IMG/VR virus record: IMGVR_UViG_3300028920_000023
Reading direction: 5' to 3' (one strand)
Source: a virus
Lineage: Duplodnaviria; Caudoviricetes
DNA: 64,000 nucleotides
In this document: positions 19,288 through 61,592 of the stretch, piece after piece
How the letters are laid out: the number at the start of each line of letters is the position of its first letter
Numbering within the stretch: position 1 is the stretch's first letter
Made by a program: the position numbers and the translations under genes
The notes under the pieces: model-generated
What the model saw: the letters and a program-made list of their open reading frames with translations, nothing else
The model's database searches: none
What the model was told of the DNA's origin: nothing

Positions 19288-19301
<14 letters not shown>

Positions 19302-20292: not shown

Positions 20293-20339
20293 AGTATTCT
20301 CCAAGAGTTTATAATACTTACTCTTGGAGATGACTGACC

Positions 20340-20651: not shown

Positions 20652-20712
20652 GATGTCGTTCCTCCTTTTTCTGTTATATCGCATAGATAAATAACAGAAA
20701 ATGGGAATAATA

Positions 20713-26964: not shown

Positions 26965-27005
26965 AGTCTGACCTCCCAAACATAATATGGACAAGGGAGG
27001 ACAAG

Positions 27006-27791
27006 ATGAAACAGAAAAATGTGGTTACCCTCTACAGAGAGACATGGAATCTGGGCGATGCAGTACAGACTCTAGCTTTGTCTAGGCTGATTGATGTCCA
27101 TGCTGGGATTTTCCGTGGAGAGAAGATTTATCTTGCCAATGATTATCTACATGTGAATAATGGTTATATCAGCGAGAAAGATTTTATTCCGCATCATGAT
27201 GCTTTGTTTGCTGGTGTGCATATTGATGTCTCATCTGGCGATGATAATATTTTGGTGTGGTTAGAGAATTCTTCTAGGCCTATTGGATCTAGGGACCCTT
27301 GGACGCATGAATATTTGTTGAAGAAGGGGATAAATTCTGAACTTGTTGGATGCGCGACAGTCACTTTCCCTACAATCGGTATGTGCGGTAAGGATGTTAT
27401 TAATGTTGAAAGCAGTTTGGAATTGGATGGTTGTATTAAGATGGACCATTTGATCCATAGGGAGATGTCGTGGGGTATGCAGTGGAATAGGGCTCAGAGT
27501 TATGTTACTAGGTATTCTATGGCGAAGTTTGTTGCGACATGTCGTTTGCATGTGGCGTTGGTTTGTATTGCGTATGGTATCCCGTTCTTTGTAGATAGGC
27601 CTAGGAATGAGAGTATGGAGAGAAGATTTAGTATTTTGTCTGAGATGGGTGTAAGATTTGGTGAAATCAATCAAATTTCTAATGAGGTTGTTGATGAGTG
27701 GAGGTTGAGGTATAAGGGGTTTTTGGAGAGGTTTGTTGATGTTGAGGAACATTCGCCAGGATTTGTTAAGCCGATATGGGATGTGGTCTGA
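27006..27791 (+). CDS. Polysaccharide pyruvyl transferase-like protein
   Basis: NLGDAVQTLAL, IGSRDPWT, TCRLHVALVCIAYGIP. Confidence 0.65.
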   Translation: MKQKNVVTLYRETWNLGDAVQTLALSRLIDVHAGIFRGEKIYLANDYLHVNNGYISEKDFIPHHDALFAGVHIDVSSGDDNILVWLENSSRPIGSRDPWTHEYLLKKGINSELVGCATVTFPTIGMCGKDVINVESSLELDGCIKMDHLIHREMSWGMQWNRAQSYVTRYSMAKFVATCRLHVALVCIAYGIPFFVDRPRNESMERRFSILSEMGVRFGEINQISNEVVDEWRLRYKGFLERFVDVEEHSPGFVKPIWDVV

Positions 27792-28300
27792 GGATTGTTT
27801 CTCCGTATTTTGATTTTACCCCTCCGGTTTTAGTGGAGAAGCAGAGGGAGGTTTTCGAGCGTTTTGATCTTCCTTTAGAACAGTGCAGAACGCGTGCTTC
27901 CGAGGGGAGCTTTTTGGATGAGGTAGTTCGTTCTGATTTTTCTTTGTTATTGTATTTCAGTCCTTATTGTGTTCCGTTGTTTGGTGATTTTATTAGGGTG
28001 GTTTGTTGTTTGGATCCGTTTGAGCGGTTGGTTGGTTTAAGGAGTCCTGGGTTTGGTGAGTGGGTTGTTGGTGGTTTTTTCGCTTTGAGTAGGGATGTTT
28101 ATGAGAGAGCTGGTCGTCCTTCGTTTTTGCCTTATGGTGGTGGTGTTTTGGGTCAGAGATTAATCAGAGGTTGTAGGGTAAATAGGATTGATGTCAGGTT
28201 TTTGGTGGATGATCAGTTGGTTTATCGTGGTGTGGTGAATGGTTTTAGGAGAAGGTGCGATAGGATTCTTTCTGAGGTTCCTGTATTGAGTTATGGATAA
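27776..28300 (+). CDS. Hypothetical, possibly degenerate glycosyltransferase
   Basis: 174-aa ORF filling the gap in the operon; extremely G/T-rich coding strand. Confidence 0.4.
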   Translation: MGCGLRIVSPYFDFTPPVLVEKQREVFERFDLPLEQCRTRASEGSFLDEVVRSDFSLLLYFSPYCVPLFGDFIRVVCCLDPFERLVGLRSPGFGEWVVGGFFALSRDVYERAGRPSFLPYGGGVLGQRLIRGCRVNRIDVRFLVDDQLVYRGVVNGFRRRCDRILSEVPVLSYG

Positions 28301-28973
28301 ATTTCGGATTAGATTAAAGAATCGTGTTAAACCTAGAAAAATTAATAAGCATAATTCTGATAAATTATTTCTAAGGAATGTTACACTTATATGTATTGAT
28401 TGTGTGAATATTGTTGGGGCGTTACGTAGTCTTGCGATATGCTTACATTATTGCGATTTTCAAGATATCAAGTTTTTAACATCGGAAAATATGAACTTTA
28501 GATATAGGGTAGAGATACCTAAAATTCACAGCAAAAGAGAATATTCGTTTTTTGTTGTTAGAGAATTATACAAGTATGTCGATACTAGCCATTTACTCAT
28601 TGTACAACACGATGGATGGATTTGTAATCCCAAGGCATGGGATGATGAGTGGTACAAATATGATTATATTGGATCGAATGTTACGTGGATGGATAATAAA
28701 GGAGGGAATGGCGGTTTTTCTTTTAGGTCTAAAAGGTTATTAGAATATGGTTTGAATATTATTCCGGAGGGGAAAGAACATCCGGAAGATGCTGCGTACT
28801 CGTCTGTAAAGAAAAAGAATACTGGATTTAGGAAACAATTTGAAGATGCTGGTTTAAGATTTGCGGATAGGGAATTACAAGCAAAATTCGGATGTAAGAA
28901 TAGGAAGAAATGGGAAGGTTCTTTCGGCCATCATACGTCTAAATTGGATGATTGGAGAAATCCAATTGGATAA
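28293..28973 (+). CDS. DUF5672-like glycosyltransferase
   Basis: HLLIVQHDGWICN...WDDEWYKYDYIG...GNGGFSFRSKRLLE...EDA. Confidence 0.65.
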   Translation: MDKFRIRLKNRVKPRKINKHNSDKLFLRNVTLICIDCVNIVGALRSLAICLHYCDFQDIKFLTSENMNFRYRVEIPKIHSKREYSFFVVRELYKYVDTSHLLIVQHDGWICNPKAWDDEWYKYDYIGSNVTWMDNKGGNGGFSFRSKRLLEYGLNIIPEGKEHPEDAAYSSVKKKNTGFRKQFEDAGLRFADRELQAKFGCKNRKKWEGSFGHHTSKLDDWRNPIG

Positions 28974-30456
28974 ATTCAGAAAAAGACTTATAAATCGTAT
29001 AAAACCAAAGAAAACTAATAAAATTGAGATACGAAATAAGGCAAATAAGATTATATCCCGTAATCATCTAGGAGGACATGAGAACATAACACATATAGAT
29101 GAAGCTGTCCTAGATTATTTAATAAGGCGATTTAGACCACATTCTTTTTTGGACGTCGGTTGCGGTCCAGGCGGCATGGTTTCTATAGCTAAATCAAGAG
29201 GATTATATTCAAAAGGAATAGATGGAGATGATAATATCAAATTTGAAGATTTGATATTGCATGATTTTCAAAATGGAAAAATAGACATCAAAAGAAAATT
29301 CGATATAATTTGGTCCACTGAATTTTTGGAACATATACCCGAGGAACTATTAGGAAACGTATTTTATACTCTAAAGAATTGTAGTAAAGAAGGAACAATT
29401 TTAATTATAACTGCGGCCCCGCCAAAATCAAAAGGACATTATCACGTTAATTTACAGAATTCAGATTATTGGATAGAAGTTTTCGAATCCAATGGATTTC
29501 AATATAGTAAGAGTCTCACTACATCAATACGAAGGTTATCTTCTATGAGACGCGAATTTATGAGAAAAACAGGTCTAGTATTTCAATTCAGGAGTAAATC
29601 AGAGAATAAAAAATCAGAACATCAAAAAACAAAAAAGATATGCTTTTATAGTTATTATGGCGGAGGCAAAAGACACGCAGAATTACTTAGGAAATATTAT
29701 GAATGTCGAAATTCAGAATTTTCAATAATAAAGCCTTGTAGTAAATGGTGTGAAGACGTATTTTCGGTAGTTACAGATATAATTTCGTCAGATATTATTT
29801 TCATCTGGAATGGGCAGGATCCGGGGTGTGATTGGATCAAATCTGTTTGCAAAGCTCATAACATCAAATATTTATACGCAGAATTGGGTCTTCTACCTCA
29901 GAAGAATAACTGGCATATCGACCCAAACGGTATAATCGGAAAGTCCTCTTTATGCAAAGAACTCAGTTGGGTTGATGACGAAATGATAAGAAAATACGAA
30001 CAATATAAGGAAACCTATATTCGAAAAAATAAATTATATTATAATCCTGGTGAATATATCTTGATTCCTTTACAATTGGAATTCGATAGTGCATTCTATC
30101 TCTATTCTGGTTATGCAAGAATATCTGATTTTATAGCGGATATGGAATCAAAATATGACAAAATCATCATCAGCCCACATCCTGTTAGGAAAGATATCAG
30201 ATTATATCCCAAAAAAGCTAAAATAATCAGAGATACCCCAACAATTAAGCTAGCTTTGAAATCAAAACAGGTAATAGGTCTGACCTCTACTATATTATAC
30301 GAGACATCCATGTTGGGCATCCCAACAGAAGCCATAGGGGATTGTCCTATGAAATACCATAAAGATGATCAAATACGTCTATTAGCAGCAGTATACCACA
30401 GACAAATACCAGAAGAAACAACAGATTTAACTAGATGGATAAACGATTTACTTTAG
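28966..30456 (+). CDS. SAM methyltransferase fused to capsule-biosynthesis (KpsS-like) domain
   Basis: TTG start 28966 with GGAG RBS; FLDVGCGPGG, STEFLEHI; C-half YAELGLLP, IPLQLEFDS, HP, TSTILYE. Confidence 0.65.
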   Translation: MDKFRKRLINRIKPKKTNKIEIRNKANKIISRNHLGGHENITHIDEAVLDYLIRRFRPHSFLDVGCGPGGMVSIAKSRGLYSKGIDGDDNIKFEDLILHDFQNGKIDIKRKFDIIWSTEFLEHIPEELLGNVFYTLKNCSKEGTILIITAAPPKSKGHYHVNLQNSDYWIEVFESNGFQYSKSLTTSIRRLSSMRREFMRKTGLVFQFRSKSENKKSEHQKTKKICFYSYYGGGKRHAELLRKYYECRNSEFSIIKPCSKWCEDVFSVVTDIISSDIIFIWNGQDPGCDWIKSVCKAHNIKYLYAELGLLPQKNNWHIDPNGIIGKSSLCKELSWVDDEMIRKYEQYKETYIRKNKLYYNPGEYILIPLQLEFDSAFYLYSGYARISDFIADMESKYDKIIISPHPVRKDIRLYPKKAKIIRDTPTIKLALKSKQVIGLTSTILYETSMLGIPTEAIGDCPMKYHKDDQIRLLAAVYHRQIPEETTDLTRWINDLL

Positions 30457-33681: not shown

Positions 33682-36495
33682 TTAACTCACAATCTCCATC
33701 TGCCTCAAAGAATACTCATTATAAGATTGCAGCTGATCCCTAACCTCCATAGAACGAATAACAGCCCCAGGGAACATCCTCAAACCCATCTTGCCAGACA
33801 AAGTCTGAATATTAATCGGGAAATAAGGAGTATTCACAGCAACAGGAGAAGTCTGATCAGCAGAAAGCAAAGTATCCGGAGATACTAGCAACCCATTAAA
33901 CCAAATCCAAACCTGATTATCCCTCACCAAAACAGTAACATCATTCCACTTCTCAACCTCACCATTAATCGGAGCAGGAAGCTCACCACCAAAATAACAA
34001 CGAAAAGCCTCAGGACTAGAAGAAACACCAGAACCAACACCATCAACAATAAAACCATTCTGAGAAAACACCTGACTCACAGCACTACCAGGCTGAAAAC
34101 CACGCACCAAATCATCCTCAGAATCCTCATCATTCAAATCATACCGAGTATTCATATCCAAAATACCAACCTGAACCTTCAACTGTACCTGCTCAGAACC
34201 ACTAGACGTATTCTGAGTAAACTGGAAACGCACCGCAGGACACGTAAAATCCTTACGCAACAACTCAACAACAGTTGTATTCGTAGGAACCTCAACAGCC
34301 TCAAGATCAGTAATACCAGTCACGTCAGTGCCACCAGTAGCATCATATGTCGGACAACAAGTACCACCAGTCTGATCCTGGCTAGAATGATCAACAGTAC
34401 AATCAGTCGGACGAACAATCTCATAATCCTCATCAAACGGAAAAACATCATCCCCACCATTAATAAGAACAGCACAATCATCATCCCAATTAGAAAAAGC
34501 CAACTTAAAATCATACTTCCACAGAATATTACGAAAAGCACCCGTCAAAATACGCAAAGTACCACGAGGAGGAAGCTGATTCCAGATCCGCCCCTTCACA
34601 ACCACATACGGAGCACCCGCAAACGGACCAGTCGTATACACACCACGCTGCAAGACCTTCAGATAAGTATCATTGAAACTATCCACCGGAGCATTCAGAA
34701 GAAGATCATATGGAGGATAAGTAAATTCTGTCTCACGAGGTTGACCAATCTTCAAACGAACCAAAGCATTCTTGTGATTCTGACGATGCCACAAGAAAAC
34801 CGGACGATCAGCAACATTCTCAGCAACAAGATCAAACTGCTGACCAAGAATAGACATATCGCGAATATCGACACGACCATCCTTATTAAAATCAGCCGCA
34901 GGATTATAATTACTATCTAAAATCGTAGAACCATAAGCACACAAGAAAATCTTCAAATCCTCATTATCAACAACACCATCACCATTCAAATCCCCAGCCA
35001 AAGAAGGCTCCTGCCTAATAATCCTCAAACCAGGTATACTAGGATCAGAATCGGCAACAATATCATTATTGATAGGTTCACCAGAAGGTTCCCGCCGAAT
35101 AACACCATCAACATCCTGGACCTCACCACCATCGTCCGACAACAATAATCTATCTTCAAAATTAGTTAGGCCCCACTCACCCTCCCTCTCAACCAAACGG
35201 AAATCTGGAACATCAACTTCTGCAGCACTAAGATTTCCCTCGGTATCCGAATTAATCTCATCCCTAGCTTCATATAAATCACCAAACTGAACCATACCAG
35301 ACAGAGCCCAGAGAGACTCAGGATTAAGTTGAGGTTCCTTACTAAAATAAGTCCTGACCGTTCTCTGGTTAGCATCCCTAGTTATCTCAAACTGCCAAAT
35401 ATCAACCAAAGTTCCCAAAGGAAGTATAGAAACAGTAGAATCCAAAACCAAAGTCTTGGGGTTGGCAAGATCCGTCGTAGCATTCTCAGGATTCAAATAC
35501 CTCCAAACATTCGTAGCACTAAACTCATTGCCAACCGGAACAGCATCCTGCACATCCCACAATTTCAACTTATACTGATTATTACTTAACACATTCGGAT
35601 CGACATCCACCACAACCGCCATCTGCTTAGTAATAAGATGGCCATTAGCCAAAATAGAACCAAGCAAACCAGGCTCAGTCTCCGGATGGAACTCATACTT
35701 CAACTGAGCACCGTTCTTATCCTGACCAACAAACCAAACGCACTCAGCCACCCCGGCAGTGCCGGGAGTAAAGGACCAACCAGTCTGGGAAGTAAGATTC
35801 TGATTTCTCTTAAGAACTACCTCAAAACTATTCTCATATGGTGTAACCCTGTTATCGTACCTCTTGAATATTAAAGAAGGAACTATACCCTTCTGATTGA
35901 AGAAATCATCCGGATTAGTTGGATCGAAGATCGTGCTCTCGGGGTATGTGTAGATCTTTAATTCACCATAAGCGCTTACATCTGGCATGATGCCGTTGCA
36001 GCTTGGTGGTCGTACGGATCTAGTCTCGCTCTCATCTTGTATCCAGAATATTCGAGCGCAATCTTCACAATTACAGCTGAGGGGGAGAGGAGAATCGACT
36101 GTAAAGCGGACAGTATTTCCGACTCTTTCGAGACTTATAAATTCGCTACCAGCTGCTAGGATAATATCCCCTACCAGATAACCTCCGTCATCCGCCATTC
36201 CTGCGCCTTGATAGCCAAGTACACCAACCCTGGTCTGGATGGCGGCATCTAATTTGCATTTGTCATCTGCGCTCATCAGCCCAGGTGAGTCACATGTGGC
36301 GTCCGGCACTGGGTCTTCGGATATGTGGGTCGAGCCATGCATGCTGGGTATTGCTACTTGGCTTTCTCTCTGATATAGTGTGTTTGTCTGCTCGTCATAT
36401 TGGAATCCGATGAGCTGCCCGTCTGCTACTGGCACCTGGAAGTATTGGCGGTCTACCAGACTCGAGGGTTCCGGGAGTATTCTGCAGGCTACCAT
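33682..36495 (-). CDS. Large virion structural protein with dockerin/EF-hand-like domain
   Basis: PGLMSADDKCKLD fibre motif near N-terminus; GDLNGDGVVDNEDL...ADFNKDGRVDIRDMSIL paired Ca-binding loops. Confidence 0.65.
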   Translation of the reverse strand: MVACRILPEPSSLVDRQYFQVPVADGQLIGFQYDEQTNTLYQRESQVAIPSMHGSTHISEDPVPDATCDSPGLMSADDKCKLDAAIQTRVGVLGYQGAGMADDGGYLVGDIILAAGSEFISLERVGNTVRFTVDSPLPLSCNCEDCARIFWIQDESETRSVRPPSCNGIMPDVSAYGELKIYTYPESTIFDPTNPDDFFNQKGIVPSLIFKRYDNRVTPYENSFEVVLKRNQNLTSQTGWSFTPGTAGVAECVWFVGQDKNGAQLKYEFHPETEPGLLGSILANGHLITKQMAVVVDVDPNVLSNNQYKLKLWDVQDAVPVGNEFSATNVWRYLNPENATTDLANPKTLVLDSTVSILPLGTLVDIWQFEITRDANQRTVRTYFSKEPQLNPESLWALSGMVQFGDLYEARDEINSDTEGNLSAAEVDVPDFRLVEREGEWGLTNFEDRLLLSDDGGEVQDVDGVIRREPSGEPINNDIVADSDPSIPGLRIIRQEPSLAGDLNGDGVVDNEDLKIFLCAYGSTILDSNYNPAADFNKDGRVDIRDMSILGQQFDLVAENVADRPVFLWHRQNHKNALVRLKIGQPRETEFTYPPYDLLLNAPVDSFNDTYLKVLQRGVYTTGPFAGAPYVVVKGRIWNQLPPRGTLRILTGAFRNILWKYDFKLAFSNWDDDCAVLINGGDDVFPFDEDYEIVRPTDCTVDHSSQDQTGGTCCPTYDATGGTDVTGITDLEAVEVPTNTTVVELLRKDFTCPAVRFQFTQNTSSGSEQVQLKVQVGILDMNTRYDLNDEDSEDDLVRGFQPGSAVSQVFSQNGFIVDGVGSGVSSSPEAFRCYFGGELPAPINGEVEKWNDVTVLVRDNQVWIWFNGLLVSPDTLLSADQTSPVAVNTPYFPINIQTLSGKMGLRMFPGAVIRSMEVRDQLQSYNEYSLRQMEIVS

Positions 36496-38487: not shown

Positions 38488-39375
38488 TTAGTAGCGCTTA
38501 TGTTGATTCAGCGGATCAAGTTTACCATTACGAGAAACAGATATACGCTTTCTCAACTTAGGCAACGTACCATCTTCCTGCATCTCGGAATAAATGCGAC
38601 TGAACGATGGCACTTTCTTCAACTCATCAATACCATGTTGACGCAACCTAACAATCAGAGTAGCAATATCCATAAGATTACCAGTAGAGACCATACCTCT
38701 TACCAGGGCTACATTGGCCGCAACCCTAACCTCATCAGAGATACCTTCCCAAGTATTATGACACTTATCACAATACCCATTAGTCAAGATCGTACCGGCA
38801 TGGAACGGACATTCCTCTACGTACGTCATAGGGAACTGATTCACTGTATAAACACGAACCTCTTCCCCATCAACAATACATACCGGGCTGGTCTCCCGAC
38901 GACGGGCAATACGCAAATGCTCCAACGTACGCTCAAGATCAATAGTCTCGTTATCTGATTTATAGATGACGAAAGGACGGCCATTAGAACGCTTCAATAA
39001 CTCATCTATGATCTCGGAACTTGATTCAGGACCGTATTTCTCTAATAATTCCTTATCACTCATCCTCCCTACAGGCTTAAGAGCTTCTAATAACGAGGAA
39101 TTATCTTCGAGAATAATATTCTCTTTCTTGACTCGCCCCTTAAGAACCTGCCAACCAGCCGAAAATCTAGCTGGTTTTACCTTAGTGCTCTTAAAAGCCT
39201 CCTTGGCGTCTGCTTCTCTTGTCGTATCTGCTTCTAGAAGAGAAATCGCATCCTCATCTTCCTTGTCTACACCAAGCTCAGACAAAGCTTGATATACAGC
39301 CTCTTCTGTGATTTTCATCACTTCAGCTGCTTTGCTTACTCTACATTCTAGGGGAGATACAGGAGGATTAGCCAT
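38488..39375 (-). CDS. Hypothetical protein with Zn-binding motif
   Basis: 295 aa, AAGGAG RBS; CPFH...YCDKC. Confidence 0.7.
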   Translation of the reverse strand: MANPPVSPLECRVSKAAEVMKITEEAVYQALSELGVDKEDEDAISLLEADTTREADAKEAFKSTKVKPARFSAGWQVLKGRVKKENIILEDNSSLLEALKPVGRMSDKELLEKYGPESSSEIIDELLKRSNGRPFVIYKSDNETIDLERTLEHLRIARRRETSPVCIVDGEEVRVYTVNQFPMTYVEECPFHAGTILTNGYCDKCHNTWEGISDEVRVAANVALVRGMVSTGNLMDIATLIVRLRQHGIDELKKVPSFSRIYSEMQEDGTLPKLRKRISVSRNGKLDPLNQHKRY

Positions 39376-39488
39376 GGTTATGGCTCCTTATTCTGTGCAC
39401 CTTGATTTTCGGTGCTGTGTTGTCAGGTTACTTGGGCCACACTCGTGGTACCGTTCGCCAGACTTCATTCTTATTTACTTTTGAGGAA

Positions 39489-39614
39489 GGGGATTAGCGC
39501 ATGGACGTGTTGTTTATTCACAATTTGCGATTGTGCGCTCCACCATGGAGCATTTTACGCTTACGCGTAAACTAGGAATCGAACCTAGCAGACTGTAACG
39601 TCGTGCAGTTCCCC
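39489..39614 (-). ncRNA. Y-RNA (YrlA)-like RNA with circularly permuted tRNA module
   Basis: Closing stem GGGGA-ACU-GCA-C-GACGU / ACGUC-CA-UGC-GCUAA-UCCCC encloses T arm CUAGG-UUCGAUU-CCUAG, loop-closed 7-bp acceptor UUUACGC-GUAA-GCGUAAA, D arm GCUC-CAUGGUG-GAGC, and 5-bp/7-nt arm CACAA-UCGCAAA-UUGUG. Confidence 0.85.
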
Positions 39615-39619
39615 AATCC

Positions 39620-40651
39620 TCAAATAGCAAACTTACTAGCACGGTTCCAAGGAGCATCTTTAGCCCATTTAGCTTTCGTAAACATCGAAGCATAAACAAT
39701 AGACCTAGATTTCCTCAAAACCTGACCATTAAACTGATCATTCTCCAAAGACACAATATCATAACCATTCATTGTGTCCTCAACCTTATCGGAAAACGGG
39801 TCATCTAGCAGTTCCCGGACGATTTCACGAACACGCTTATCCTCTTCTGCCTCTGCCCGTTCAATCTCACGCTCAAGATCTTCCAATGATCCGAGACCGC
39901 GAGATTTCAGAGGAACACGCAAACGAGAAGTCGGGGTACGGCTATTCTTACGAGCAACCTCGATAGACAATGACCCATAACACTCACGAACTAAAGGCCT
40001 CCAAAGCTCTGACCAATATCTAGGATTAGGAGCACGCTCCACGCCAGTAACAGAACCATTGATCAGAATAATCGCCCCAATCTGTTTAGGAACTATCTCA
40101 AACTCCGCAACAAACTGATCCAACTCATCCCTAAATGCACTAAGAAAATTATCCAAATTACCAGTCGCACTAACCTCAAAAGAAGCATTAAAACGAGAAA
40201 TATCATCCCAAAGCTTATAATAAGAACGCTCACCCCGCTTGTTAAACGCAGACTCACGCAAAGAAAAAGGAAGAACCAACATATCATGCTGGCCCTCGGG
40301 GATATAGCCACCTTGCGATTGCTGTATACACATCGCATCATCAAAAGACTTATCGCCCTTACCAACCAAACCAGCCCTGCTCATAGCATGATCCTGGGCA
40401 GCATGTTTCGTAACATACCCAGCATGACACGGAATAAGCAGGACCTTCTCCGGATCAGGATTACGAAACTTCATCTCACCATAATTGTGAGTACTTAAGC
40501 TCGTCTCAACGTCCTTATCCTGAGGAGAAATAATATTCAGATCATACAACTCCTTATCTTTACAAATAAGAGGAATAATCTGCATAACACCAACAGACTG
40601 CAGATTGCCAACCTTCGTACCACGCAGAACCTCACTGATAGTATAATCCAT
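39620..40651 (-). CDS. ARPP / DUF6569-like protein
   Basis: Start 40651 (GGAGG RBS, 1 nt after upstream TAG); NLQSVGVMQIIPL, AQDHAM, CIQQSQGG, EFEIVPKQIGAIILING...VERAP...W...CYG recognised from memory of the ARPP family. Confidence 0.6.
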   Translation of the reverse strand: MDYTISEVLRGTKVGNLQSVGVMQIIPLICKDKELYDLNIISPQDKDVETSLSTHNYGEMKFRNPDPEKVLLIPCHAGYVTKHAAQDHAMSRAGLVGKGDKSFDDAMCIQQSQGGYIPEGQHDMLVLPFSLRESAFNKRGERSYYKLWDDISRFNASFEVSATGNLDNFLSAFRDELDQFVAEFEIVPKQIGAIILINGSVTGVERAPNPRYWSELWRPLVRECYGSLSIEVARKNSRTPTSRLRVPLKSRGLGSLEDLEREIERAEAEEDKRVREIVRELLDDPFSDKVEDTMNGYDIVSLENDQFNGQVLRKSRSIVYASMFTKAKWAKDAPWNRASKFAI

Positions 40652-40652
40652 G

Positions 40653-42197
40653 CTAGATATCCTCCAACTGAGGCAAAGCGATCCTCGCCAGACCCTCGAT
40701 AGCCTCTTCCAAATTCGTAACAAGAAGAGACTTCAAAACCCGCATGCCAATCCCCTCAGGTTTAGACAACGGAACAGCCTCAACCTCCGGAGCCAAAGTC
40801 CTGAGCGCACCAGCCTTCTCCGCAGCCACCACAGGGGAGACCTGAACCACCGGAGTATTAATCCCCATCTCACGAACAATCTTCAGAACTTCAGAAAATC
40901 TACCCGCAGGAGCATTCTCGTAACCATCAGACAACACATAAACAATCTCAGGATCATACTTCAAAAGAGACACCAAAGCAGACGCCAAAGAGGTCGGACC
41001 ACAGGGAAAAACCAAACCGCCCCTAGGGGCACCACCACAATGGACCACATCAGCAGAAGAACTAGCCTCTTTTAACATATCCCTTACAGCCAAAGAAACA
41101 GCAATCGGACGATTCTTCTGAGTATCATCACCCATCATGGACCTAGAACAATCCACAATAATACCTATGTGACCATGTTTGGAGAACATCGCCTCAGCAG
41201 ATTTCTTTGCTTTCTGCTTTAATGCTGCACGGATCTCGTCTGTCATCCCCATCTCATAAGCGTAGATATAAAGCCTTACGGCATCCAGAGAATGAGGATT
41301 AAACTCGACTTTCACACCAACTTTCTTTGTAGCCTTCTGGACAAGGGCCTTCTGTCGTTTGGTCATCCCACTCTTTGCTAACTCATAAACCACATCCTTG
41401 CCGACGCTAGTATGGAACCTACTTCTTAAGTAAAAGAGTTGCTCTTTGGGCAATCCTTTCCCTTCGGCAAGGTTCTTCTTGGCTTTGATATACTTCTTCA
41501 TAGGATCGGATTTGATCCTGTTCTCAAATCCGAGTATGAAGGCCAGAGGCTCCGTGACGTCGGCGTCTGTATATGGCTCTACGTATTTGGACAGGGTTGT
41601 TTTTTGTTTTTCTGTCCATGCTTTCTTGACGCCTTTTCCGTGTTTCGCTTCCAGGCATTTATACACGGATTTAAAGACGTTCTGGCCCCAGGCATGTTGT
41701 AGGCATTGTCTTATTTTGTAGCGGTATTTGACGCTCCAGTGTTTGAGATTTTTGTTACCTAATAGGCAATTTAGAATGAGTTTCCTAGTTCTAGAATTGT
41801 TGATTCTGTTTTTTCTGAATTCCAGGAACGCTTTGATCATTCTCTGCGGTTCTACGGAACCTGCGAGATGTCTTATTAGTTTGCCTTCTTGCGCCGGAGT
41901 TAGGATTGCTTCCCCACTTCTTGGATTATCAAGGAAGAAACCCATTCCGAGCTGTTTCGAGTAGTCGTTTATCCCAGGCAAGCAGAGACACAGACCGTAA
42001 ATCCCACGGTCGATTGAGAAGATGTCTTTGTGCAGTTGTAATATTGCTTGTTTTTGTTCTTCTCTTGTATTGTAATGTGTTGCTCTGTCCGTTGCTGCAG
42101 CTACGGTATCAAGGAAACTACCCAGGAGCCCTGGCAGTTTTCGTTTCTGCGCTGTACTTAGATGGTCTATTTTGGATATCGCTAGTTCTGTGGTCAT
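40653..42197 (-). CDS. Ro60/TROVE-like protein: ~370-aa helical domain plus C-terminal vWA domain
   Basis: Start 42197 (MTTELAIS); vWA MIDAS IIVDCSRSM ... GPTSLA ... VLSDGYEN; basic helical N-domain. vWA is well supported; TROVE homology is inferred from architecture and flanking RNAs. Confidence 0.6.
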   Translation of the reverse strand: MTTELAISKIDHLSTAQKRKLPGLLGSFLDTVAAATDRATHYNTREEQKQAILQLHKDIFSIDRGIYGLCLCLPGINDYSKQLGMGFFLDNPRSGEAILTPAQEGKLIRHLAGSVEPQRMIKAFLEFRKNRINNSRTRKLILNCLLGNKNLKHWSVKYRYKIRQCLQHAWGQNVFKSVYKCLEAKHGKGVKKAWTEKQKTTLSKYVEPYTDADVTEPLAFILGFENRIKSDPMKKYIKAKKNLAEGKGLPKEQLFYLRSRFHTSVGKDVVYELAKSGMTKRQKALVQKATKKVGVKVEFNPHSLDAVRLYIYAYEMGMTDEIRAALKQKAKKSAEAMFSKHGHIGIIVDCSRSMMGDDTQKNRPIAVSLAVRDMLKEASSSADVVHCGGAPRGGLVFPCGPTSLASALVSLLKYDPEIVYVLSDGYENAPAGRFSEVLKIVREMGINTPVVQVSPVVAAEKAGALRTLAPEVEAVPLSKPEGIGMRVLKSLLVTNLEEAIEGLARIALPQLEDI

Positions 42198-42254
42198 GAT
42201 CTCGCCCTTTCCAGTGATGAGGCTGTTTATCAGCTTCGTCCTGGTAGTTAAAGT

Positions 42255-42283
42255 AGATGCGGACCTGATTGGGGTCCGCATCT
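42255..42283. other. 11-bp hairpin between RNA pair and vWA gene
   Basis: AGATGCGGACC-tgattgg-GGTCCGCATCT. Confidence 0.7.
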
Positions 42284-42291
42284 GATTTAGT

Positions 42292-42404
42292 GGGGGATTT
42301 GCGCAGGGTCAGTTTTCGTCAGAGAGGGAATTGAACCCTCAACTTCGCTTTATAAGAGCGATGTCCTATCCATTGGACTATCTGTAATGACGTGCAGTTC
42401 CCCC
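42292..42404 (-). ncRNA. Y-like RNA containing tRNA-Ile(UAU) body with broken acceptor stem
   Basis: Closing stem GGGGGA-ACU-GCA-C-GUCA / UGAC-CC-UGC-GCAAA-UCCCCC; D arm GUCC/GGAC, anticodon arm UCGCU-CUUAUAA-AGCGA, T arm GAGGG-UUCAAUU-CCCUC; only 4 acceptor bp, no CCA. Confidence 0.85.
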
Positions 42405-42431
42405 GAACTTGCTTTTTTGTTTTGGGATTAG

Positions 42432-42547
42432 TTTGGGGTTGGCGCAAAGTCGTGTTTAAGTGGAGCAGGACTTGAACCTGCGACTTATCGGTTATCAGCC
42501 GATCGCTCTACCATTGAGCTATCCTGTAACGACGTGCAGTCCCCAAA
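42432..42547 (-). ncRNA. Y-like RNA containing tRNA-Ile(GAU) body with broken acceptor stem
   Basis: Closing stem UUUGGGG-ACU-GCA-C-GUCGU / ACGAC-UU-UGC-GCCAA-CCCCAAA; D arm GCUC/GAGC, anticodon arm AUCGG-CUGAUAA-CCGAU, T arm GCAGG-UUCAAGU-CCUGC; only 3 contiguous acceptor bp, no CCA. Confidence 0.85.
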
Positions 42548-42579
42548 GATCATTTTTCGGTCAGTGCCAAACCAGAAAC

Positions 42580-42608
42580 ATTGTATCACATCCAAACCGC
42601 TTTGTCAA
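42580..42608 (-). promoter_or_regulatory. Sigma70 promoter TTGACA-17-TACAAT with extended -10 TG
   Basis: Direct match; predicted TSS about 42573, roughly 26-30 nt before the first RNA; the -35 box contains the upstream gene's TGA stop. Confidence 0.8.
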
Positions 42609-42997
42609 GTACCCACTGCCATCTTCTTTGTCGTCTTCTTCTTATAAGAACGACGACCCCGTTTCTGCATCTCCTCGCTCTCATATAGAGAACGGGCCAT
42701 ATTTAAAAATTGTCTAGTAACCATCCTAAGAACATTCTCGAACTCTCTAGAATTCAAAGCACAATTATGATAACAAGTATAGGTAACTATCTTCACAACA
42801 ACTGTACCAGGCATAGAAGAATCATTCACAATACCACTAGCTATAATCTCAGCATGAGTCTTATCATAAGTCTCACCACCAAAATAAGGATAATCAAAAA
42901 ACACACCGTCCTCATCCGTATCCCTAATCAACCCATAGAAAATCGCAAACTTCTTCATTTCCGATGGTCTAGACAAGAAATTCAAAGGTGCTTCCAT
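42605..42997 (-). CDS. Hypothetical protein
   Basis: Start set at 42997 (GGGAG RBS just after dut stop); basic C-terminus. Confidence 0.6.
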   Translation of the reverse strand: MEAPLNFLSRPSEMKKFAIFYGLIRDTDEDGVFFDYPYFGGETYDKTHAEIIASGIVNDSSMPGTVVVKIVTYTCYHNCALNSREFENVLRMVTRQFLNMARSLYESEEMQKRGRRSYKKKTTKKMAVGT

Positions 42998-43007: not shown

Positions 43008-43964
43008 CTATTTTCCCGATGAACCAAAACCCGCGACACCCCGCTGATTATAATCGGGGCCAAACTCACACACCTCAACAATATCAACATTACAATAACG
43101 CTGTATAATGACCTGAGCTATACGATCATGAAAATTGACCTTATAAGGCTTATCCGAAATATTCATAAGAGCAATCATAAGCTCGCCACAATATGTGCTA
43201 TCAATAATACCGTGAAACGGCGTAACCCCCTGGACCCACATAGAAGACCTACCCTCAACAGTAATATAATAACCCTCAGGACAGGAAAGAATAACCCCAG
43301 TATGGATATTCTTAGTACCATGGGGTTCAATTACAACCTCCTCGATAGAATAAACATCATATCCCGCATCCGTAGTCCTCTTACGAGTAGGAACTTTAGC
43401 CTCATCGGATATGGGTTTGCATTCTAAACGAACTGGTGTAAGGTTGTCTTTGAGGTATTCAGTAGAGGATGGAGTGGTGAGGTAGATGTTTCTTGGATTT
43501 ACTTCTAGTTCTGGCTTTATTCTATTTATTGTAATATTATTTGGATCCAGGTATTTTCTAGTATTGTAGCTTCTTCCTCCTTGTAAGTGCCATTGGTATA
43601 ACATATCTTCTGATGTTATTGTTGGCAAATTATGTATTAATAGGTAATTTTCGAATCGTTGTAAGAGATCTTCTGAACATTTTTTGCAACATGCTCCCAA
43701 TCCGTCGTATCTTTCCGGCATTATTATAAACTGGTCTGTTGTCCTATAAATTTTGCACATGTTACACCATTTGACCCTGGATATGCCGTCTGTCTTGTGT
43801 GTAGGGCACCTGTGCAGTTGTCCTATTCTTTTGTATTCTCTCTCAAACTCTTCATCGCAATTTCTACAACGCACTTTGATTTTGTCGTTGGGTTTCGGTA
43901 TTTTGTCTACAATGTGGTTTATTGGTTCAACTGTTCCGACTCTTTCGTTCATCTTCATCTCCAC
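43008..43964 (-). CDS. dut: dUTPase with N-terminal Cys-rich / degenerate HNH-like extension
   Basis: C-terminal AGYDV, GRSS, GIIDSTYCGE, DRIAQ, RGVAGFGSSG trimeric dUTPase motifs; N-terminal CxxC clusters. Confidence 0.9.
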   Translation of the reverse strand: MEMKMNERVGTVEPINHIVDKIPKPNDKIKVRCRNCDEEFEREYKRIGQLHRCPTHKTDGISRVKWCNMCKIYRTTDQFIIMPERYDGLGACCKKCSEDLLQRFENYLLIHNLPTITSEDMLYQWHLQGGRSYNTRKYLDPNNITINRIKPELEVNPRNIYLTTPSSTEYLKDNLTPVRLECKPISDEAKVPTRKRTTDAGYDVYSIEEVVIEPHGTKNIHTGVILSCPEGYYITVEGRSSMWVQGVTPFHGIIDSTYCGELMIALMNISDKPYKVNFHDRIAQVIIQRYCNVDIVEVCEFGPDYNQRGVAGFGSSGK

Positions 43965-52134: not shown

Positions 52135-53232
52135 TTATCCTATGTATTCCAAAACTGCGTTTACTACCTGGGATATTTCATCATCATCAAGCGATGGGTA
52201 CGATGGAAGTATTACACATTGCTGATTCAGAAGTCTCGCGTTTCCCTCGGAATCTTCATTCGCGTATTCAGCCAAACCATTATGTTTGGACATAGGATAA
52301 AACATCGGCCTAATATCGATATTGCGCTTATTAAAGAATTTTTCTGCGGCTTTATAGGAAGGATTACATAATATTCTTACCCCGAACATCCAATAGGAAT
52401 GATTACAAGCATCATCTACAAATTGAATTTGTAGTTTTTCTTTATTTTTAAAACATTGTTGATAATGTCTATAGATCCTTTCTTTGCGAGCCATTATATC
52501 TTTATATCTGCGTAATTGCCCATATAATATAGCTGCTTGCATATTCGTCATTCTATAATTATAACCAATATAATTATGAACAAAGCGAGTTTCAGATTGT
52601 CCTTGTCCATGCAACATAACAAGATGCTTGTACAATTCCTCGTTGCCAGTTATTACGGCTCCGCCTTCACCACAGGTAATACTCTTATTACCGTAGAAAG
52701 ATAACGAAGATGCTAGGCACTCTGTTCCAGTTAATTTCCCTTCGTAACGTCCAAATATTCCTTCACAATTATCTTCTATAACAATAAAATCTTGTAATTC
52801 TTTCCTTAATCGCGGAACATTAACAGGATTGCCAAGATTATGGACTGTCAATATAGCAGTGTCGTTAGGATCATATTTTAGTGCCGTATCGATTAATCTG
52901 TCTACGTCTATATTCCATGTTCTTAAGTCAGCCTGTACCGGAACTAATTCAAATTTTGGACCATATATCATTGAATTCCATGCCGCAACATATACGTTAT
53001 CTGGAACTAGAATTCTGGTTATATTGGGATTTTCATGCTTTATAGCGTGTGCAAGTAGATGCGTGGCAGATGTGCCATTACTTGTCAATAATACAAATTT
53101 ACCAAATATTTCGGATAATAATGCTGATACTCTTTTATTGTATTCTCCGGAAGACACCCAGGTAGATCCTAATGCCTCGGATACGAGCTCTATGTCCTCC
53201 GGAAGTATTTCTGGTTTATAAACCGGTATCAT
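52135..53232 (-). CDS. DegT/DnrJ aminotransferase, GDP-perosamine synthase-like
   Basis: TWVSS, SNGTSATHL, EDNCE, SFYGNKSITCGEGG, GYNYRMTNMQAA, LPS. Confidence 0.85.
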   Translation of the reverse strand: MIPVYKPEILPEDIELVSEALGSTWVSSGEYNKRVSALLSEIFGKFVLLTSNGTSATHLLAHAIKHENPNITRILVPDNVYVAAWNSMIYGPKFELVPVQADLRTWNIDVDRLIDTALKYDPNDTAILTVHNLGNPVNVPRLRKELQDFIVIEDNCEGIFGRYEGKLTGTECLASSLSFYGNKSITCGEGGAVITGNEELYKHLVMLHGQGQSETRFVHNYIGYNYRMTNMQAAILYGQLRRYKDIMARKERIYRHYQQCFKNKEKLQIQFVDDACNHSYWMFGVRILCNPSYKAAEKFFNKRNIDIRPMFYPMSKHNGLAEYANEDSEGNARLLNQQCVILPSYPSLDDDEISQVVNAVLEYIG

Positions 53233-53537
53233 CAGTATGTCTTATGCTTTCTCTGGATGTGTTTGCCGGAGTCTAGATCTGCGCCATTAAGCGCATCTCG
53301 TATTATTTCGACAATTTTTTCATCAATCTCATCTATAAGCTGGCTGCGCTGCACATTGAGGTCACAACATTTCTTCAAAACTTCGTATAATTTCTCCAGA
53401 TTCTCCTCATTTTCATAACGAGATTTGAATTCATCAAAATCCATCCTCCGTATTTTGTACAATAATTCCTGATTACACCACATTTTCGAATCTGCAGTGA
53501 ATAATTTGTCAACTAAACCGCCTAATGTGTCAGCCAT
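53232..53537 (-). CDS. DUF4254-like protein
   Basis: TLGGLVDKL...DLNVQRSQLIDEID. Confidence 0.55.
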   Translation of the reverse strand: MADTLGGLVDKLFTADSKMWCNQELLYKIRRMDFDEFKSRYENEENLEKLYEVLKKCCDLNVQRSQLIDEIDEKIVEIIRDALNGADLDSGKHIQRKHKTY

Positions 53538-53586
53538 CGTTATCCCCTGGATTTAGATGCAAATATTCTTGACGTATATATTTACT

Positions 53587-53997
53587 ATGATAATTAGAAA
53601 AGCATATAACCCGAATGATATTTCACAATTTATATCAAATGCTGGGGCATCATTAAAAACATTCAGATATTTCAAAACAAGGCCTGTAAATATCATAGAG
53701 AAGCATCTAATAACTCTTGTGGGAGTAAAATCTGGAAAGATAATAGCATATGGGCATCTAGATCAGGAAAACGGGAATATTTGGTTAGGCATTTGTGTGG
53801 CTGAGTCATATTCTGGTTTAGGTTTTGGATCACAAATAATGCAAGAATTGTTAAAAATAGCTTATAATTTATCAATTAAAACAATTAAATTGAGTGTCGA
53901 TTCCGATAATAAGGCAGCTATAAAATTTTACAAGAAATTCGGATTCACAATCATACAGAAAAATCTTAAAAACTATCTTATGATATTTTCATCCTAG
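53587..53997 (+). CDS. GNAT acetyltransferase
   Basis: GICVAESYSGLGFG, VDSDNKAAIKFYKKFGF. Confidence 0.85.
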   Translation: MIIRKAYNPNDISQFISNAGASLKTFRYFKTRPVNIIEKHLITLVGVKSGKIIAYGHLDQENGNIWLGICVAESYSGLGFGSQIMQELLKIAYNLSIKTIKLSVDSDNKAAIKFYKKFGFTIIQKNLKNYLMIFSS

Positions 53998-54665
53998 CCT
54001 CCGGCTGTTTTGAAGACAGCATATCCGTTGCGATACGACCTATCTTCCTCAATCATAACATACGATTCATCCATAGATAATTTTTTATATGAAGATAAAT
54101 TCTTAATGTCCATAACATCATCGAGTATAATAATTTTTGTCCCCCATAACTCTATTAACTCGGCATAACCGGAAAAAGCGGATCCGTCTATTAAAGCCAT
54201 TTCAGGCACATCACACCCCAGGATCTCTTTTGCTATTTTTATACCATTATGTGGGATATCAGCAGCCTCTTGTATGTCTTCTGTACGCCATGACTTAATC
54301 ATTTCTAGCGAATATTGACGTATATTCAGGTTGGGATTTTGATGCCAAAATTCATCTATTTGTTGTTCTGTCATCAGTGAGGTCGACGGAACAGAGGATG
54401 CTCTTATTTGGCGCACAAACCCATATTTCGACGTGTTTGCAACCAAGGCATTGTAACGTGGCAACACAGACTCGATACAACATAAGGTTGAATTTGCACC
54501 GCTTTCGCGTATACCCCTTATGAAAGCCTGAGTGCTGCCCAGGCCAGTCGCTGATCCTATTTCTATTATACTTCTTGGTTTTTCGGTCTTAATCAAGTCT
54601 ATTATTTTATAGAATAATTTATCATCTAGGATCTCTGGTCGGAAATCTACTGTCTTCATCCCCAT
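53994..54665 (-). CDS. Methyltransferase-like protein
   Basis: IIEIGSATGLGST, LIDG..F. Confidence 0.6.
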   Translation of the reverse strand: MGMKTVDFRPEILDDKLFYKIIDLIKTEKPRSIIEIGSATGLGSTQAFIRGIRESGANSTLCCIESVLPRYNALVANTSKYGFVRQIRASSVPSTSLMTEQQIDEFWHQNPNLNIRQYSLEMIKSWRTEDIQEAADIPHNGIKIAKEILGCDVPEMALIDGSAFSGYAELIELWGTKIIILDDVMDIKNLSSYKKLSMDESYVMIEEDRSYRNGYAVFKTAGG

Positions 54666-55375
54666 CTCCTTGTAGCTTCTTTTGCCACTGCCTTGATATC
54701 TTCGGTTATATAACTTATCCTATCATAATCATAGGACCAAAGGCGGTTCATTGGCGATTGTTCCCAACTCTTGGTCATGGATACTATTACCTCTCCACCA
54801 GCAGCCAACATAAGAAAGAAATCGCCAGTACTGACACCAACATATTTCCCGATTGCAGCGTAATAACATACAAGATCGTCAAATGATTTGTCATGTAATT
54901 CTACTACGTTATTTAATTTCATAATATTGTCACTCATGCCAAATTGCAAGACCGTGAAATTCTCAGACAAAAGATTAACAAGATTCTGTGTGTCCTCAAC
55001 TGACATTCGGCGCAAATGTGCCCAACGCTTTGAACAATTTGATATAAACACAATTGGGTTATCATAATCCTTTATTAATTCTTGCCCCCTAGATATCTCT
55101 TCTTCCTTGATTTTCATATAAGGGTAATAATCGTTATCTGGTAAACCTAAAGTTCTTAGTTTTTGTTTAGACCAATGATCTCCCCTACCATCTCCTTTTG
55201 TTTCTATGGGATTCTCTACCAGTCTAATTTCTTTGCATATACCCTCGAAAATTCTACTAAATCTCTTTGAATTATGATGCAAATTAACGATACAATCAGG
55301 AACAGCTTTACATATTGGGGTAATTGTGAAAAGATCTCCAAAGCCCGGAGAATCACCAGGAAGGCCAATTATCAT
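54656..55375 (-). CDS. GT9-like glycosyltransferase
   Basis: GFGDLFTITP, YVGVSTGDFFLMLAAG. Confidence 0.6.
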   Translation of the reverse strand: MIIGLPGDSPGFGDLFTITPICKAVPDCIVNLHHNSKRFSRIFEGICKEIRLVENPIETKGDGRGDHWSKQKLRTLGLPDNDYYPYMKIKEEEISRGQELIKDYDNPIVFISNCSKRWAHLRRMSVEDTQNLVNLLSENFTVLQFGMSDNIMKLNNVVELHDKSFDDLVCYYAAIGKYVGVSTGDFFLMLAAGGEVIVSMTKSWEQSPMNRLWSYDYDRISYITEDIKAVAKEATRRWG

Positions 55376-56574
55376 TTTCTGTCCAATCTATACATATTCC
55401 GTGGCCTAATAGTATCCGTAGCTAGACCCAAATGTTCAGCAACAACAAAATTAGTTAGATGTTTATTACAAATATGATCAAGCATTTCCTGAACAGACCC
55501 AAAATCCCACTCCTGGCCAGGCAAGGGTTTACTTCCCCAAGATTGTTCTTTGTGATGTTCCTCCAATAATATAGAGGACCTTACCTTGTTATTTAAAAAA
55601 GCATAAATCTTATTCTTAGGGTTAATATGATGTATAACAGAAAAACACAACGCAATATCACATTGATCAATGATTTCCTCTTCGCCAAGATTACGATGAA
55701 TAATCGAGATTTGGTCTAATTCTTCTAACTCGATAATTCGCCTAGCTGCCTCCGCAGTTTTCCCACATACCTCAAACCCTACCACCTTTTGAGCCCCGAG
55801 TTCAGCAGCTAAATGAGACATCCTACCCAAATTGCAACCAATATCGAAAACCACTTTATCCTTAAAAAATCCAGGTAATTTTTCACGAATAATATTAGGC
55901 CTTTGATCTGCTCTGTGTCCACGAACAGTGAAATTCTTGCCAGTCCAAGCGTAATAAGGCTTATCGGAACCAGTAGATACAAAGCCCTTCATCCAAGGTT
56001 CATCAGTAATATCTCTCTTCATCGTTTTCCCCTTAAAACAATTAATCTTCTTAACTAAATATTTGTAATTAGATGGATCCCACCTCTTGGAATTATTATT
56101 CCCGCACATATCCGGAGAAGACTCAAACGGTACATTGTGAACCAACTTATATGATCTATTAAAATCGATCATATATACCTCGTTTCCACATACCACAAAA
56201 CTATCCAATTTTATATCACCATGTACAAATCCCCTATCAAATACGGCCCTTATTTGACCAAGAACCACATCCTCAAGACCATCAAAATAAGTATCCTCAG
56301 ATATAGGACCACCAGACTTGAAATCCATAATGATCAATTCAACATCACCGAATTTCTTATAAGAATGCACCTTCGGTATAAACGGTAAATCTAAGGAAAT
56401 AATAATATCGTATTCTTCTTTCAAAGATTTAATATTATTATTCGGAAAAGAAAATTTGAAAAAGAGATCTCCAGACCTATAATATTGCGCTACATGCGTC
56501 AGGGGGCGAATAGGCAATCTATAGTAATCATCATACCCCAAAGACCTCAATATCTTCTCAAAACTGTGTTCCAC
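55372..56574 (-). CDS. Kinase (APH/RIO-like) fused to SAM methyltransferase
   Basis: VHGDIKLDSF, MIDFN; then FDIGCNLG, FSVIHH. Confidence 0.75.
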   Translation of the reverse strand: MEHSFEKILRSLGYDDYYRLPIRPLTHVAQYYRSGDLFFKFSFPNNNIKSLKEEYDIIISLDLPFIPKVHSYKKFGDVELIIMDFKSGGPISEDTYFDGLEDVVLGQIRAVFDRGFVHGDIKLDSFVVCGNEVYMIDFNRSYKLVHNVPFESSPDMCGNNNSKRWDPSNYKYLVKKINCFKGKTMKRDITDEPWMKGFVSTGSDKPYYAWTGKNFTVRGHRADQRPNIIREKLPGFFKDKVVFDIGCNLGRMSHLAAELGAQKVVGFEVCGKTAEAARRIIELEELDQISIIHRNLGEEEIIDQCDIALCFSVIHHINPKNKIYAFLNNKVRSSILLEEHHKEQSWGSKPLPGQEWDFGSVQEMLDHICNKHLTNFVVAEHLGLATDTIRPRNMYRLDRK

Positions 56575-61401: not shown

Positions 61402-61477
61402 TGGTGGTCCCGGCAGGATTCGAACCTGCGACCAGCTGATTATGAGTCAGCGGCTCTCACCTCTGAGCTACGGGACC
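61402..61477 (-). tRNA. tRNA-CAU (Ile2- or elongator Met-type), CCA encoded
   Basis: GGUCCCG/CGGGACC acceptor, GCUC/GAGC D arm, GCUGA-CUCAUAA-UCAGC, GCAGG-UUCGAAU-CCUGC, ACCA. Confidence 0.92.
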
Positions 61478-61516: not shown

Positions 61517-61592
61517 TGGTTGCGGGCCGTGGTAACGCTCCACGATTAGCGGGTTATGAGCCCGCCCAGGAGACTTCTCCTAGCCACCCGCA
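61517..61592 (-). tRNA. Atypical initiator-like tRNA-CAU
   Basis: UGCGGG.../CCCGCA-ACCA and GGG/CCC anticodon stem as in tRNA-fMet, but a 7-bp D stem with 4-nt loop and T loop AGCGUUA. Confidence 0.7.

Follow-up and report, generated by a model that had tools for sequence, protein, structure and literature searches.

Tandem tRNA-like RNAs on a common closing stem beside a Ro60-like gene in a marine-sediment phage: probable Y-RNA-type partners that carry whole tRNA mimics

What is the nature of two tandem RNAs which each contain an apparently complete tRNA body, lack an acceptor stem of ordinary length and a CCA end, and are located directly in front of a protein gene on phage DNA? The locus lies within a 64-kb stretch of DNA (the window) from a huge phage of a marine-sediment metagenome. 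A search of sequencing runs returned marine-sediment and marsh DNA data sets and no RNA run. No near-identical phage DNA was found, and at the protein level the window matches one record only, that of the uncultured 462-kb phage LR756500.1. The first-pass annotation had read the two RNAs, here called RNA-A and RNA-B, as tRNA-Ile(GAU) and tRNA-Ile(UAU) bodies set into a Y-like stem that takes the place of the acceptor end. Ro60 and its Y RNAs form a conserved RNA-surveillance particle, and we know of no role that has been assigned to the tRNA-like half of the bacterial Y RNAs.

The cluster is located on the minus strand and consists of RNA-A, RNA-B, the gene of a 514-residue protein, a gene of the ARPP family and a third RNA, RNA-C (Table 1). 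The promoter-like site upstream of RNA-A agrees with the consensus at 11 of 12 positions and is the best within 39300-42800; the counts of sigma70-type sites in the region do not exceed those in shuffled sequences, and the site represents a consensus match only. The hairpin between RNA-B and the protein gene was not called by a terminator scan, and read-through into the protein gene is therefore likely. A dUTPase gene (43008-43964, minus strand) lies two genes upstream of the RNA cluster and is syntenic in the loci L149, L152 and L155; this synteny in the nearest relatives suggests a larger conserved block around the module. Elsewhere the window contains a sugar-nucleotide and glycosylation gene cluster (19288-30456 and 52135-56574) that encodes a GDP-mannose 4,6-dehydratase, several glycosyltransferases, a sulfotransferase, a DegT aminotransferase and methyltransferases, as well as an open reading frame of 3696 codons (7205-18295) and a 937-residue protein with a dockerin repeat (33682-36495).

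Table 1. Features of the RNA and protein gene cluster, in window coordinates
Feature	Position	Strand	Basis or remark
Promoter-like site, sigma70-type TTGACA-17-TACAAT with TG extension	42580..42608	(-)	consensus match, upstream of RNA-A
RNA-A, handle and tRNA-like body	42432..42547	(-)	Rfam tRNA 61.6 bits; R1 92.2 bits; fold
RNA-A, 5' handle strand	42525-42547	(-)	
RNA-A, body	42462-42524	(-)	
RNA-A, 3' handle strand	42432-42461	(-)	
RNA-A, anticodon loop CUGAUAA	42492..42498	(-)	GAU at 42496-42494
RNA-B, handle and tRNA-like body	42292..42405	(-)	Rfam tRNA 56.8 bits; ARAGORN; R1 81.4 bits; fold
RNA-B, 5' handle strand	42385-42405	(-)	
RNA-B, body	42320-42384	(-)	
RNA-B, 3' handle strand	42292-42319	(-)	
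RNA-B, anticodon loop CUUAUAA	42350..42356	(-)	UAU at 42354-42352
11-bp hairpin, without U run after it	42255..42283	(-)	between RNA-B and protein gene
Ro60-like protein gene, 514 aa	40653..42197	(-)	predicted fold
ARPP-family gene	39620..40651	(-)	Pfam PF20208, 4.8e-33
RNA-C, same handle and permuted tRNA-like insert	39489..39614	(-)	fold; handle word

RNA-A and RNA-B are both non-permuted, with the D arm followed by the anticodon arm and the T arm. The Rfam tRNA model RF00005 (gathering score 29) aligns to RNA-A at 42457-42528 (E 6.6e-11) and to RNA-B at 42320-42384 (E 1.4e-09); ARAGORN calls RNA-B alone, as tRNA-Ile(UAU) at 42316-42387, and misses RNA-A. The stems of RNA-A are GCUC/GAGC in the D arm, AUCGG/CCGAU in the anticodon arm and GCAGG-UUCAAGU-CCUGC in the T arm, those of RNA-B are GUCC/GGAC, UCGCU/AGCGA and GAGGG-UUCAAUU-CCCUC, and the differences between the two bodies in all three stems are compensatory. 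Both contain the elbow nucleotides of a tRNA (D-loop GG and T-loop UUCAA) and form the cloverleaf expected of one. The acceptor falls short of the 7 bp of a tRNA, since it pairs over 3 bp in RNA-A (GGA/UCC) and over 4 bp in RNA-B (CAGA/UCUG), with the outer positions mismatched in the Infernal alignment; no CCA is encoded after it, and the 3' strand runs on into the handle. The ordinary tRNAs of the window (61402-61477 and 61517-61592) have 7-bp acceptors and an encoded ACCA. The latter of these (minus strand) is called by ARAGORN as a second tRNA-Met(CAU) with ACCA, lies below the gathering score of the Rfam tRNA model and has an atypical-looking D region. Folded singly, both RNAs form a closing stem from the two flanks of the body, with -35.7 kcal/mol in either case and z-scores of -2.25 and -2.74, and the 5' handle word CTGCACG-NNN-TTACAG has exactly three copies in the 64 kb, which are those of RNA-A, RNA-B and RNA-C. 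The first-pass annotation had described the regular arms, the acceptor of 3-4 bp, the missing CCA as opposed to the ACCA of the tRNAs at 61.4-61.6 kb, and the shared closing stem; all four descriptions hold, the last of them also by comparative covariation far beyond chance.

The comparison drew on 80 loci on viral contigs and 68 in bacterial genomes, to which 7 further contigs from the nearest relatives were added. Where the locus is more closely related, the gene of the homologue of the 514-residue protein is preceded at short distance by a tRNA-like body within a long closing stem, and the anticodons differ between loci. The covariance model R1, which was built from a MAFFT alignment of 27 relatives and used with a cut-off of at least 54 bits for full-length members, yields 116 distinct full-length RNAs in 96 sources, namely 54 in the viral search (53 viral contigs and the window) and 42 bacterial genome loci. 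RNA-A matches over model positions 1-127, whereas the match of true tRNAs, including the window's own, is limited to the body (model positions 31-90). All of the RNAs are on the same strand as the homologue of the 514-residue protein gene and nearly all are just upstream of it. A literature search returned no description of the RNA family or of the Ro60-like/ARPP module, and the family of handle RNAs is apparently widespread and previously undescribed.

From the 27 aligned RNAs RNAalifold derives a consensus with P1 as the outer helix, P3 as the inner helix and the D, anticodon and T arms of the body; the structure that was tested adds P2 and the innermost acceptor pair to these (32 pairs in all). 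In the 27-RNA MAFFT alignment 91.2% of the cells are paired, compared to 35-41% when the partners are slid by 1-3 columns; double-sided changes occur in 27 of the 32 pairs, and in 500 shuffles the observed values were never attained. For 62 RNAs of the viral search, pairing extends to 93.9% of the cells and double changes are present throughout the 32 pairs; this second alignment leans toward the structure because it was fitted to the model, which is not the case for the 27-RNA MAFFT result. Over both alignments 91-94% of the cells are paired, compared to 35-50% in the slid controls. In the handle, helix 1 is paired at 87-92% and helix 2 at 81-89%, and of the 17 handle pairs 15 (27 RNAs) or all 17 (62 RNAs) are changed on both strands. 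The linkers U-N-C-A-G at the 5' side and the A-rich AAAC at the 3' side are near-universal in the family, and the 5' handle of the Pirellulaceae RNAs equals that of RNA-B nearly letter for letter (GCACGUCAUUACAG), with an acceptor that is likewise 3-4 bp long. Selection acts on both modules, the handle and the tRNA body. As the homologues keep the closing stem, the random decay which had been named beforehand as the observation that would speak against the architecture is not what is found.

The family is heterogeneous in its acceptor, which has 6-8 bp in 48 of the 116 RNAs and at most 4 bp in another 48. NCC follows the acceptor in 15 of the long-acceptor RNAs (NCCA in five) and in none of the short-acceptor RNAs, and RNA-A and RNA-B are members of the short-acceptor, CCA-less class. 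Given these long acceptors and the 15 RNAs with NCC, some relatives could be tRNA-like in their processing. Some phage RNAs of the family (L003:3650-3780, L006:3638-3765 and L018:3575-3703) have a 7-bp acceptor and ACC(A) yet a 6-nt anticodon loop, CUUCAA, and combine a tRNA-like acceptor with a loop that is not usable for decoding.

Inserts of other kinds are found on the same handle. RNA-C folds with -43.5 kcal/mol (z -4.0) and its insert is arranged in the order T arm, closed acceptor-like hairpin, D arm and anticodon-like arm; model R1 recognises the handle only (13.9 bits, E 0.18). RNA-C is like the YrlA RNAs in its permuted order, to which it adds the anticodon-like arm. After the ARPP gene of L149 and L151 no RNA-C-type element is obvious. 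In Planctomycetota a second class of handle RNA directly follows the full tRNA-type one and is composed of an anticodon-like hairpin and a T arm without a D arm, with the closing stem as in the full version (L107:2635-2733; L081:2377-2466 and 2646-2747; L091:2797-2892); these D-less RNAs are reminiscent of Yrn1 of Deinococcus radiodurans. The closest viral-contig relative, L001, contains three tandem handle RNAs with shrinking inserts, which are a single hairpin with the loop CCGAUAA (L001:3676-3738), a handle with two hairpins (L001:3751-3845) and a handle without insert, capped by a CUAU tetraloop (about L001:3868-3912). The view that RNA-A and RNA-B are non-permuted and opened at the acceptor, on a handle common to differently wired mimics, thus extends beyond RNA-C to D-less, hairpin-only and handle-only RNAs. 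A scan for all handle-bearing RNAs by regular expression and pairing gave 13 matches in the window alone and was discarded as too permissive.

The anticodon loop has seven nucleotides in 109 of the 116 RNAs, and the framework of these 109 loops resembles that of a tRNA, with U33 in 90, a purine at position 37 in 103 and A38 in 92 cases. Positions 34-36 have near-maximal entropy (1.85-1.96 bits), with 41 different triplets in the 109 loops, of which 14 have A34 and 12 are complementary to stop codons; some of the RNAs have 6-nt loops. Judged from the sequences, A34, stop-complementary triplets and 6-nt loops are at odds with a decoding role. RNA-A and RNA-B were described at first as tRNA-Ile bodies, but by mean identity they are no closer to true tRNA-Ile than to the family with its other anticodons: RNA-A scores 0.68 with the family, 0.66 with tRNA-Ile and 0.61 with tRNAs overall, and RNA-B 0.64, 0.62 and 0.60, respectively. 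Isoleucine is not a trait of the family, and the 'Ile' identity of RNA-A and RNA-B resides in the triplet alone.

The nearest relatives, whose Ro60-like proteins are 46-50% identical and which share the synteny of dUTPase, RNAs, Ro60-like and ARPP genes, carry the loop triplets GAU, UCC and UAG (L149), UAU and CCU (L151), ACU and GAU (L154), CAU (L155) and, in the hairpin-only RNA of L001, GAU. The orthologue of RNA-A (L149:2493-2615) keeps the GAU loop while three of the five anticodon-stem pairs are changed on both sides. The orthologue of RNA-B (L149:2641-2759) keeps the unusual D stem GUCC/GGAC and has the loop CUUCCAA, that is UCC and not UAU; the loop CUUAUAA of RNA-B recurs in L151:2745-2856. 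Loops with xAU (GAU, UAU or CAU) make up 7 of 13 in the nearest-relative group versus 4 of 107 elsewhere (Fisher p 8e-06; 3e-04 without the window's own two RNAs), an enrichment which is a lead and not proof of selection because the sequences are related. In the survey of the anticodons on homologous stems, which the first-pass annotation had proposed, the 41 triplets follow no Ile rule, but xAU is enriched in the closest relatives and the GAU of RNA-A is kept. The rarity of bacterial tRNA-Ile(UAU), which the first-pass annotation had mentioned, is irrelevant given the diversity of the family triplets and the UCC of the RNA-B orthologue. Thirteen near-identical Pirellulaceae RNAs carry the triplets CUU, UUU, AUG, UAG, AUU and AAG; the triplet is among their most variable positions, and since one T-loop, one D-loop and one linker position vary equally, diversifying selection is not claimed.

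The 514-residue protein has no hit in Pfam (including TROVE), PHROGs or NCBIfam, and neither its single sequence nor a profile of 40 sequences finds a PDB Ro60 chain. Its AlphaFold model has a pLDDT of 90.9, and all 13 of the PDB hits that Foldseek returns for it with E <= 0.001 are Ro60/TROVE structures (E 1.6e-06 to Ro60). VIA-align superimposes 406 residues on Xenopus Ro60 (2i91_A) with Z 17.7 and gives Z 15.7-15.9 to the Ro60 of Thermus phage phiLo. The MIDAS pattern of the vWA domain, DxSxS...T...D, is present, and D349, S353, T402 and D424 are invariant. By its predicted structure the protein is a full-length and very diverged Ro60 fold consisting of a HEAT ring and a vWA domain, and by analogy it is presumed to be the binding partner of RNA-A and RNA-B. 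More than 160 homologues were found, and an ARPP homologue directly follows the Ro60-like gene in 135 of 148 loci; the gene neighbourhoods that PMC9503650 lists for ARPP are others and do not include the pairing with a Ro60-like gene. In Planctomycetota, Myxococcota and other bacteria (L081-L133, for example L108, L083, L088 and L112) the Ro60-like/ARPP pair is embedded in tRNA gene arrays with 10-36 members. The handle RNA of Pirellulaceae is always preceded, at a distance of about 23 nt, by a tRNA-Cys(GCA)-like gene that starts with A1-U72 and has no CCA.

It is proposed that RNA-A and RNA-B are Y-RNA-type partner RNAs of the Ro60-like/ARPP pair in which the variable module is a whole, non-permuted tRNA mimic, and we consider this reading likely to be correct. 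One module is a constant, end-paired handle that is composed of P1, an internal loop with G(A)ACU, P2, P3 and the linkers U-N-C-A-G (5') and AAAC (3'), and which, by analogy with Ro60 and Y RNA, may serve as the binding site of the Ro60-like protein. The other module is variable and in RNA-A and RNA-B takes the form of a full, non-permuted tRNA fold, in which the D/T elbow is intact and the anticodon loop is of the canonical U-turn type. As the acceptor is cut to 3-4 bp and runs into the handle, no free CCA end is available and the RNAs would not be charged in vivo. They are probably cut from one transcript that would lead from the promoter at 42608 into the Ro60-like and ARPP genes. Most likely the module offers the surface of a tRNA, with a real anticodon loop as part of it, to some tRNA-recognising factor; it might tether or bait this factor to the Ro60-like/ARPP particle, or else serve as its decoy, presumably in the setting of a tRNA-centred conflict between phage and host. 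The roles suggested in the first-pass annotation, namely decoys, A-site mimics or substrates for maturation, are likewise hypothetical. Our confidence in any specific effector is much less than that in the reading as Y-RNA-type partners. A more far-reaching and rather doubtful idea is that of a programmable tRNA-decoy or surveillance device with the anticodon loop as its active element, in which exchangeable triplets on the uncharged, handle-tethered mimics of the Ro60-like/ARPP particle would determine the anticodon-directed enzyme to be baited, sensed or soaked up. Candidate targets of such a device would be anticodon nucleases of the host and enzymes that modify the loop or ADP-ribosylate, and the version in the lineage of the window phage would be directed at the AUN (Ile/Met) box.

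Three other explanations have to be weighed against partner RNAs of the Y type. It is unlikely, although the location in the 5' leader of the Ro60-like gene makes a cis role conceivable, that the RNAs are cis-acting leader elements of the Ro60-like/ARPP mRNA which serve as autoregulatory sites or tRNA-like processing signals. In favour of it, the sole strong promoter-like site is located ahead of them and the gene after them, no intrinsic terminator intervenes, the hairpin at 42255-42283 precedes the start codon, and the place just upstream of the gene is nearly universal. Leader elements would, however, hardly be expected in up to three tandem copies per locus with differing inserts, nor after the ARPP gene where RNA-C is located, nor as the handle-only mini versions, and the known bacterial Y RNAs are also co-transcribed with their neighbours and then processed (PMC4201824).

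A clearly lower probability is given to precursors of working tRNAs, from which the closing stem would be removed as a leader-trailer duplex, with repair or extension of the body and charging with isoleucine to follow. In its favour are the textbook arms with good tRNA scores, the 15 relatives with a 6-7 bp acceptor followed by NCC(A), the presence of relatives within large tRNA arrays, and YrlA of M. smegmatis, which RNase P cleaves and to which CCA is added (PMC4201824). Against it, the acceptors have only three and four pairs without CCA, NCC is lacking in all 48 members with an acceptor of at most 4 bp, the strong structural selection on the handle goes well past the need of a discarded flank, the family includes A34, stop-complementary triplets and 6-nt loops, and the real tRNAs of the window have 7-bp acceptors and encoded CCA. 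Finally, decaying pseudo-tRNAs from a degraded tRNA cluster, with fortuitous complementarity of the flanks, would account for the truncated acceptor, the missing CCA and the failure of ARAGORN to call RNA-A; they are scarcely credible in view of 116 distinct homologues in which all helices, the closing stem among them, show compensatory changes, of such changes between the D, anticodon and T stems of RNA-A and RNA-B themselves, and of the strict linkage to one gene pair.

The results describe a large branch of the Ro60 fold that is invisible to sequence searches, strictly coupled to ARPP and, in bacteria, often located in tRNA arrays. Full tRNA mimics with genuine anticodon loops suggest that the anticodon end, besides the elbow, is a functional surface, and as cultured Planctomycetota carry close orthologues, among them strains of Rhodopirellula, Roseiconus, Stieleria and Novipirellula (L088, L089, L091 and L098), the question is directly testable. 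For annotators, the result means that 'tRNA' calls on handle RNAs are not decoding tRNAs.

Compared with known Y RNAs, RNA-A and RNA-B have a same-strand neighbour gene that is recognised as Ro60 by predicted fold only, a linkage seen in 96 sources, and a bulged terminal stem formed from the 5' and 3' ends in which P1, P2 and P3 covary. The partner is not identified as TROVE/Ro60 by sequence, and the Ro60-contact motif GGUCCGA / GNCGAAN0-1G is absent; the 5' strands read GGGG(A)ACUGCACG with no CGAA in the handle, and the 5' handle strand of relatives reads CGAG(A/G)ACU. The Rfam Y RNA models match nothing in RNA-A or RNA-B up to E 10, where only tRNA and chance-level hits are returned.

The YrlA Y RNAs, which are bound by Rsr/Ro60, are known from Salmonella, M. 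smegmatis and mycobacteriophages (PMC4201824; structure preprint 10.1101/312249). Like RNA-A and RNA-B, they are non-coding RNAs beside a same-strand Ro60-type gene, with an end-paired terminal stem and a tRNA-like module with D and T arms; there are several Y RNAs per locus, which for YrlA are processed from a polycistronic transcript, and mostly no free CCA end (PMC4201824). YrlA is permuted, with a T arm, a closed acceptor-like stem-loop and a D arm (PMC4201824), whereas RNA-A and RNA-B are non-permuted and opened at the acceptor. YrlA has no anticodon loop because the position of the anticodon stem leads into the Ro60-binding stem (PMC4201824), and RNA-A and RNA-B differ from it by keeping a full anticodon arm of 5 bp and 7 nt. 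In place of the GNCGAAN0-1G motif of YrlA (PMC4201824) their handle contains G(A)ACU ... UNCAG / AAAC, and in place of a Pfam-recognisable TROVE partner, often accompanied by RtcB/RtcA, a sequence-invisible Ro60-like protein and ARPP are found here.

Yrn1 of D. radiodurans is closer in its wiring, as it is non-permuted, has an anticodon-like arm between a D-like region and the T arm and carries the Ro60-binding stem in the acceptor position (PMC4201824). It differs by the lack of a full D arm and of a variable region, by an anticodon-like arm of 5 bp and 6 nt, and by a metazoan-type Ro60 motif in the stem, and it tethers PNPase (PMC4201824). RNA-A and RNA-B, by contrast, are whole cloverleaves that score above the Rfam threshold for tRNA. 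Thermus phage phiLo encodes a Ro60-fold protein with two upstream Y-like RNAs, Yrl1 and Yrl2 (PMC12135203; PDB 9KOP, 9L5Y), but these consist of stem, bulge and stem with the CGAA motif and without a tRNA body, and no ARPP partner is reported (PMC12135203). A survey of jumbo phages mentions TROVE proteins with a tRNA-like partner in general terms only (PMC7824862). tRNA array units of phages, plasmids and bacteria have been discussed as anti-defence tRNA supplies (PMC5966550, PMC12803027), and the bacterial homologous loci resemble them in lying inside arrays of 10-36 tRNA genes; the tRNAs of the arrays are free-standing with 7-bp acceptors, from which the handle RNAs are distinct as a class. 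Y RNAs are built from a constant stem joined to a variable module (PMC4201824, PMC12135203), and both tRNA wirings have precedent among them, the permuted one in YrlA and the non-permuted one in Yrn1 (PMC4201824).
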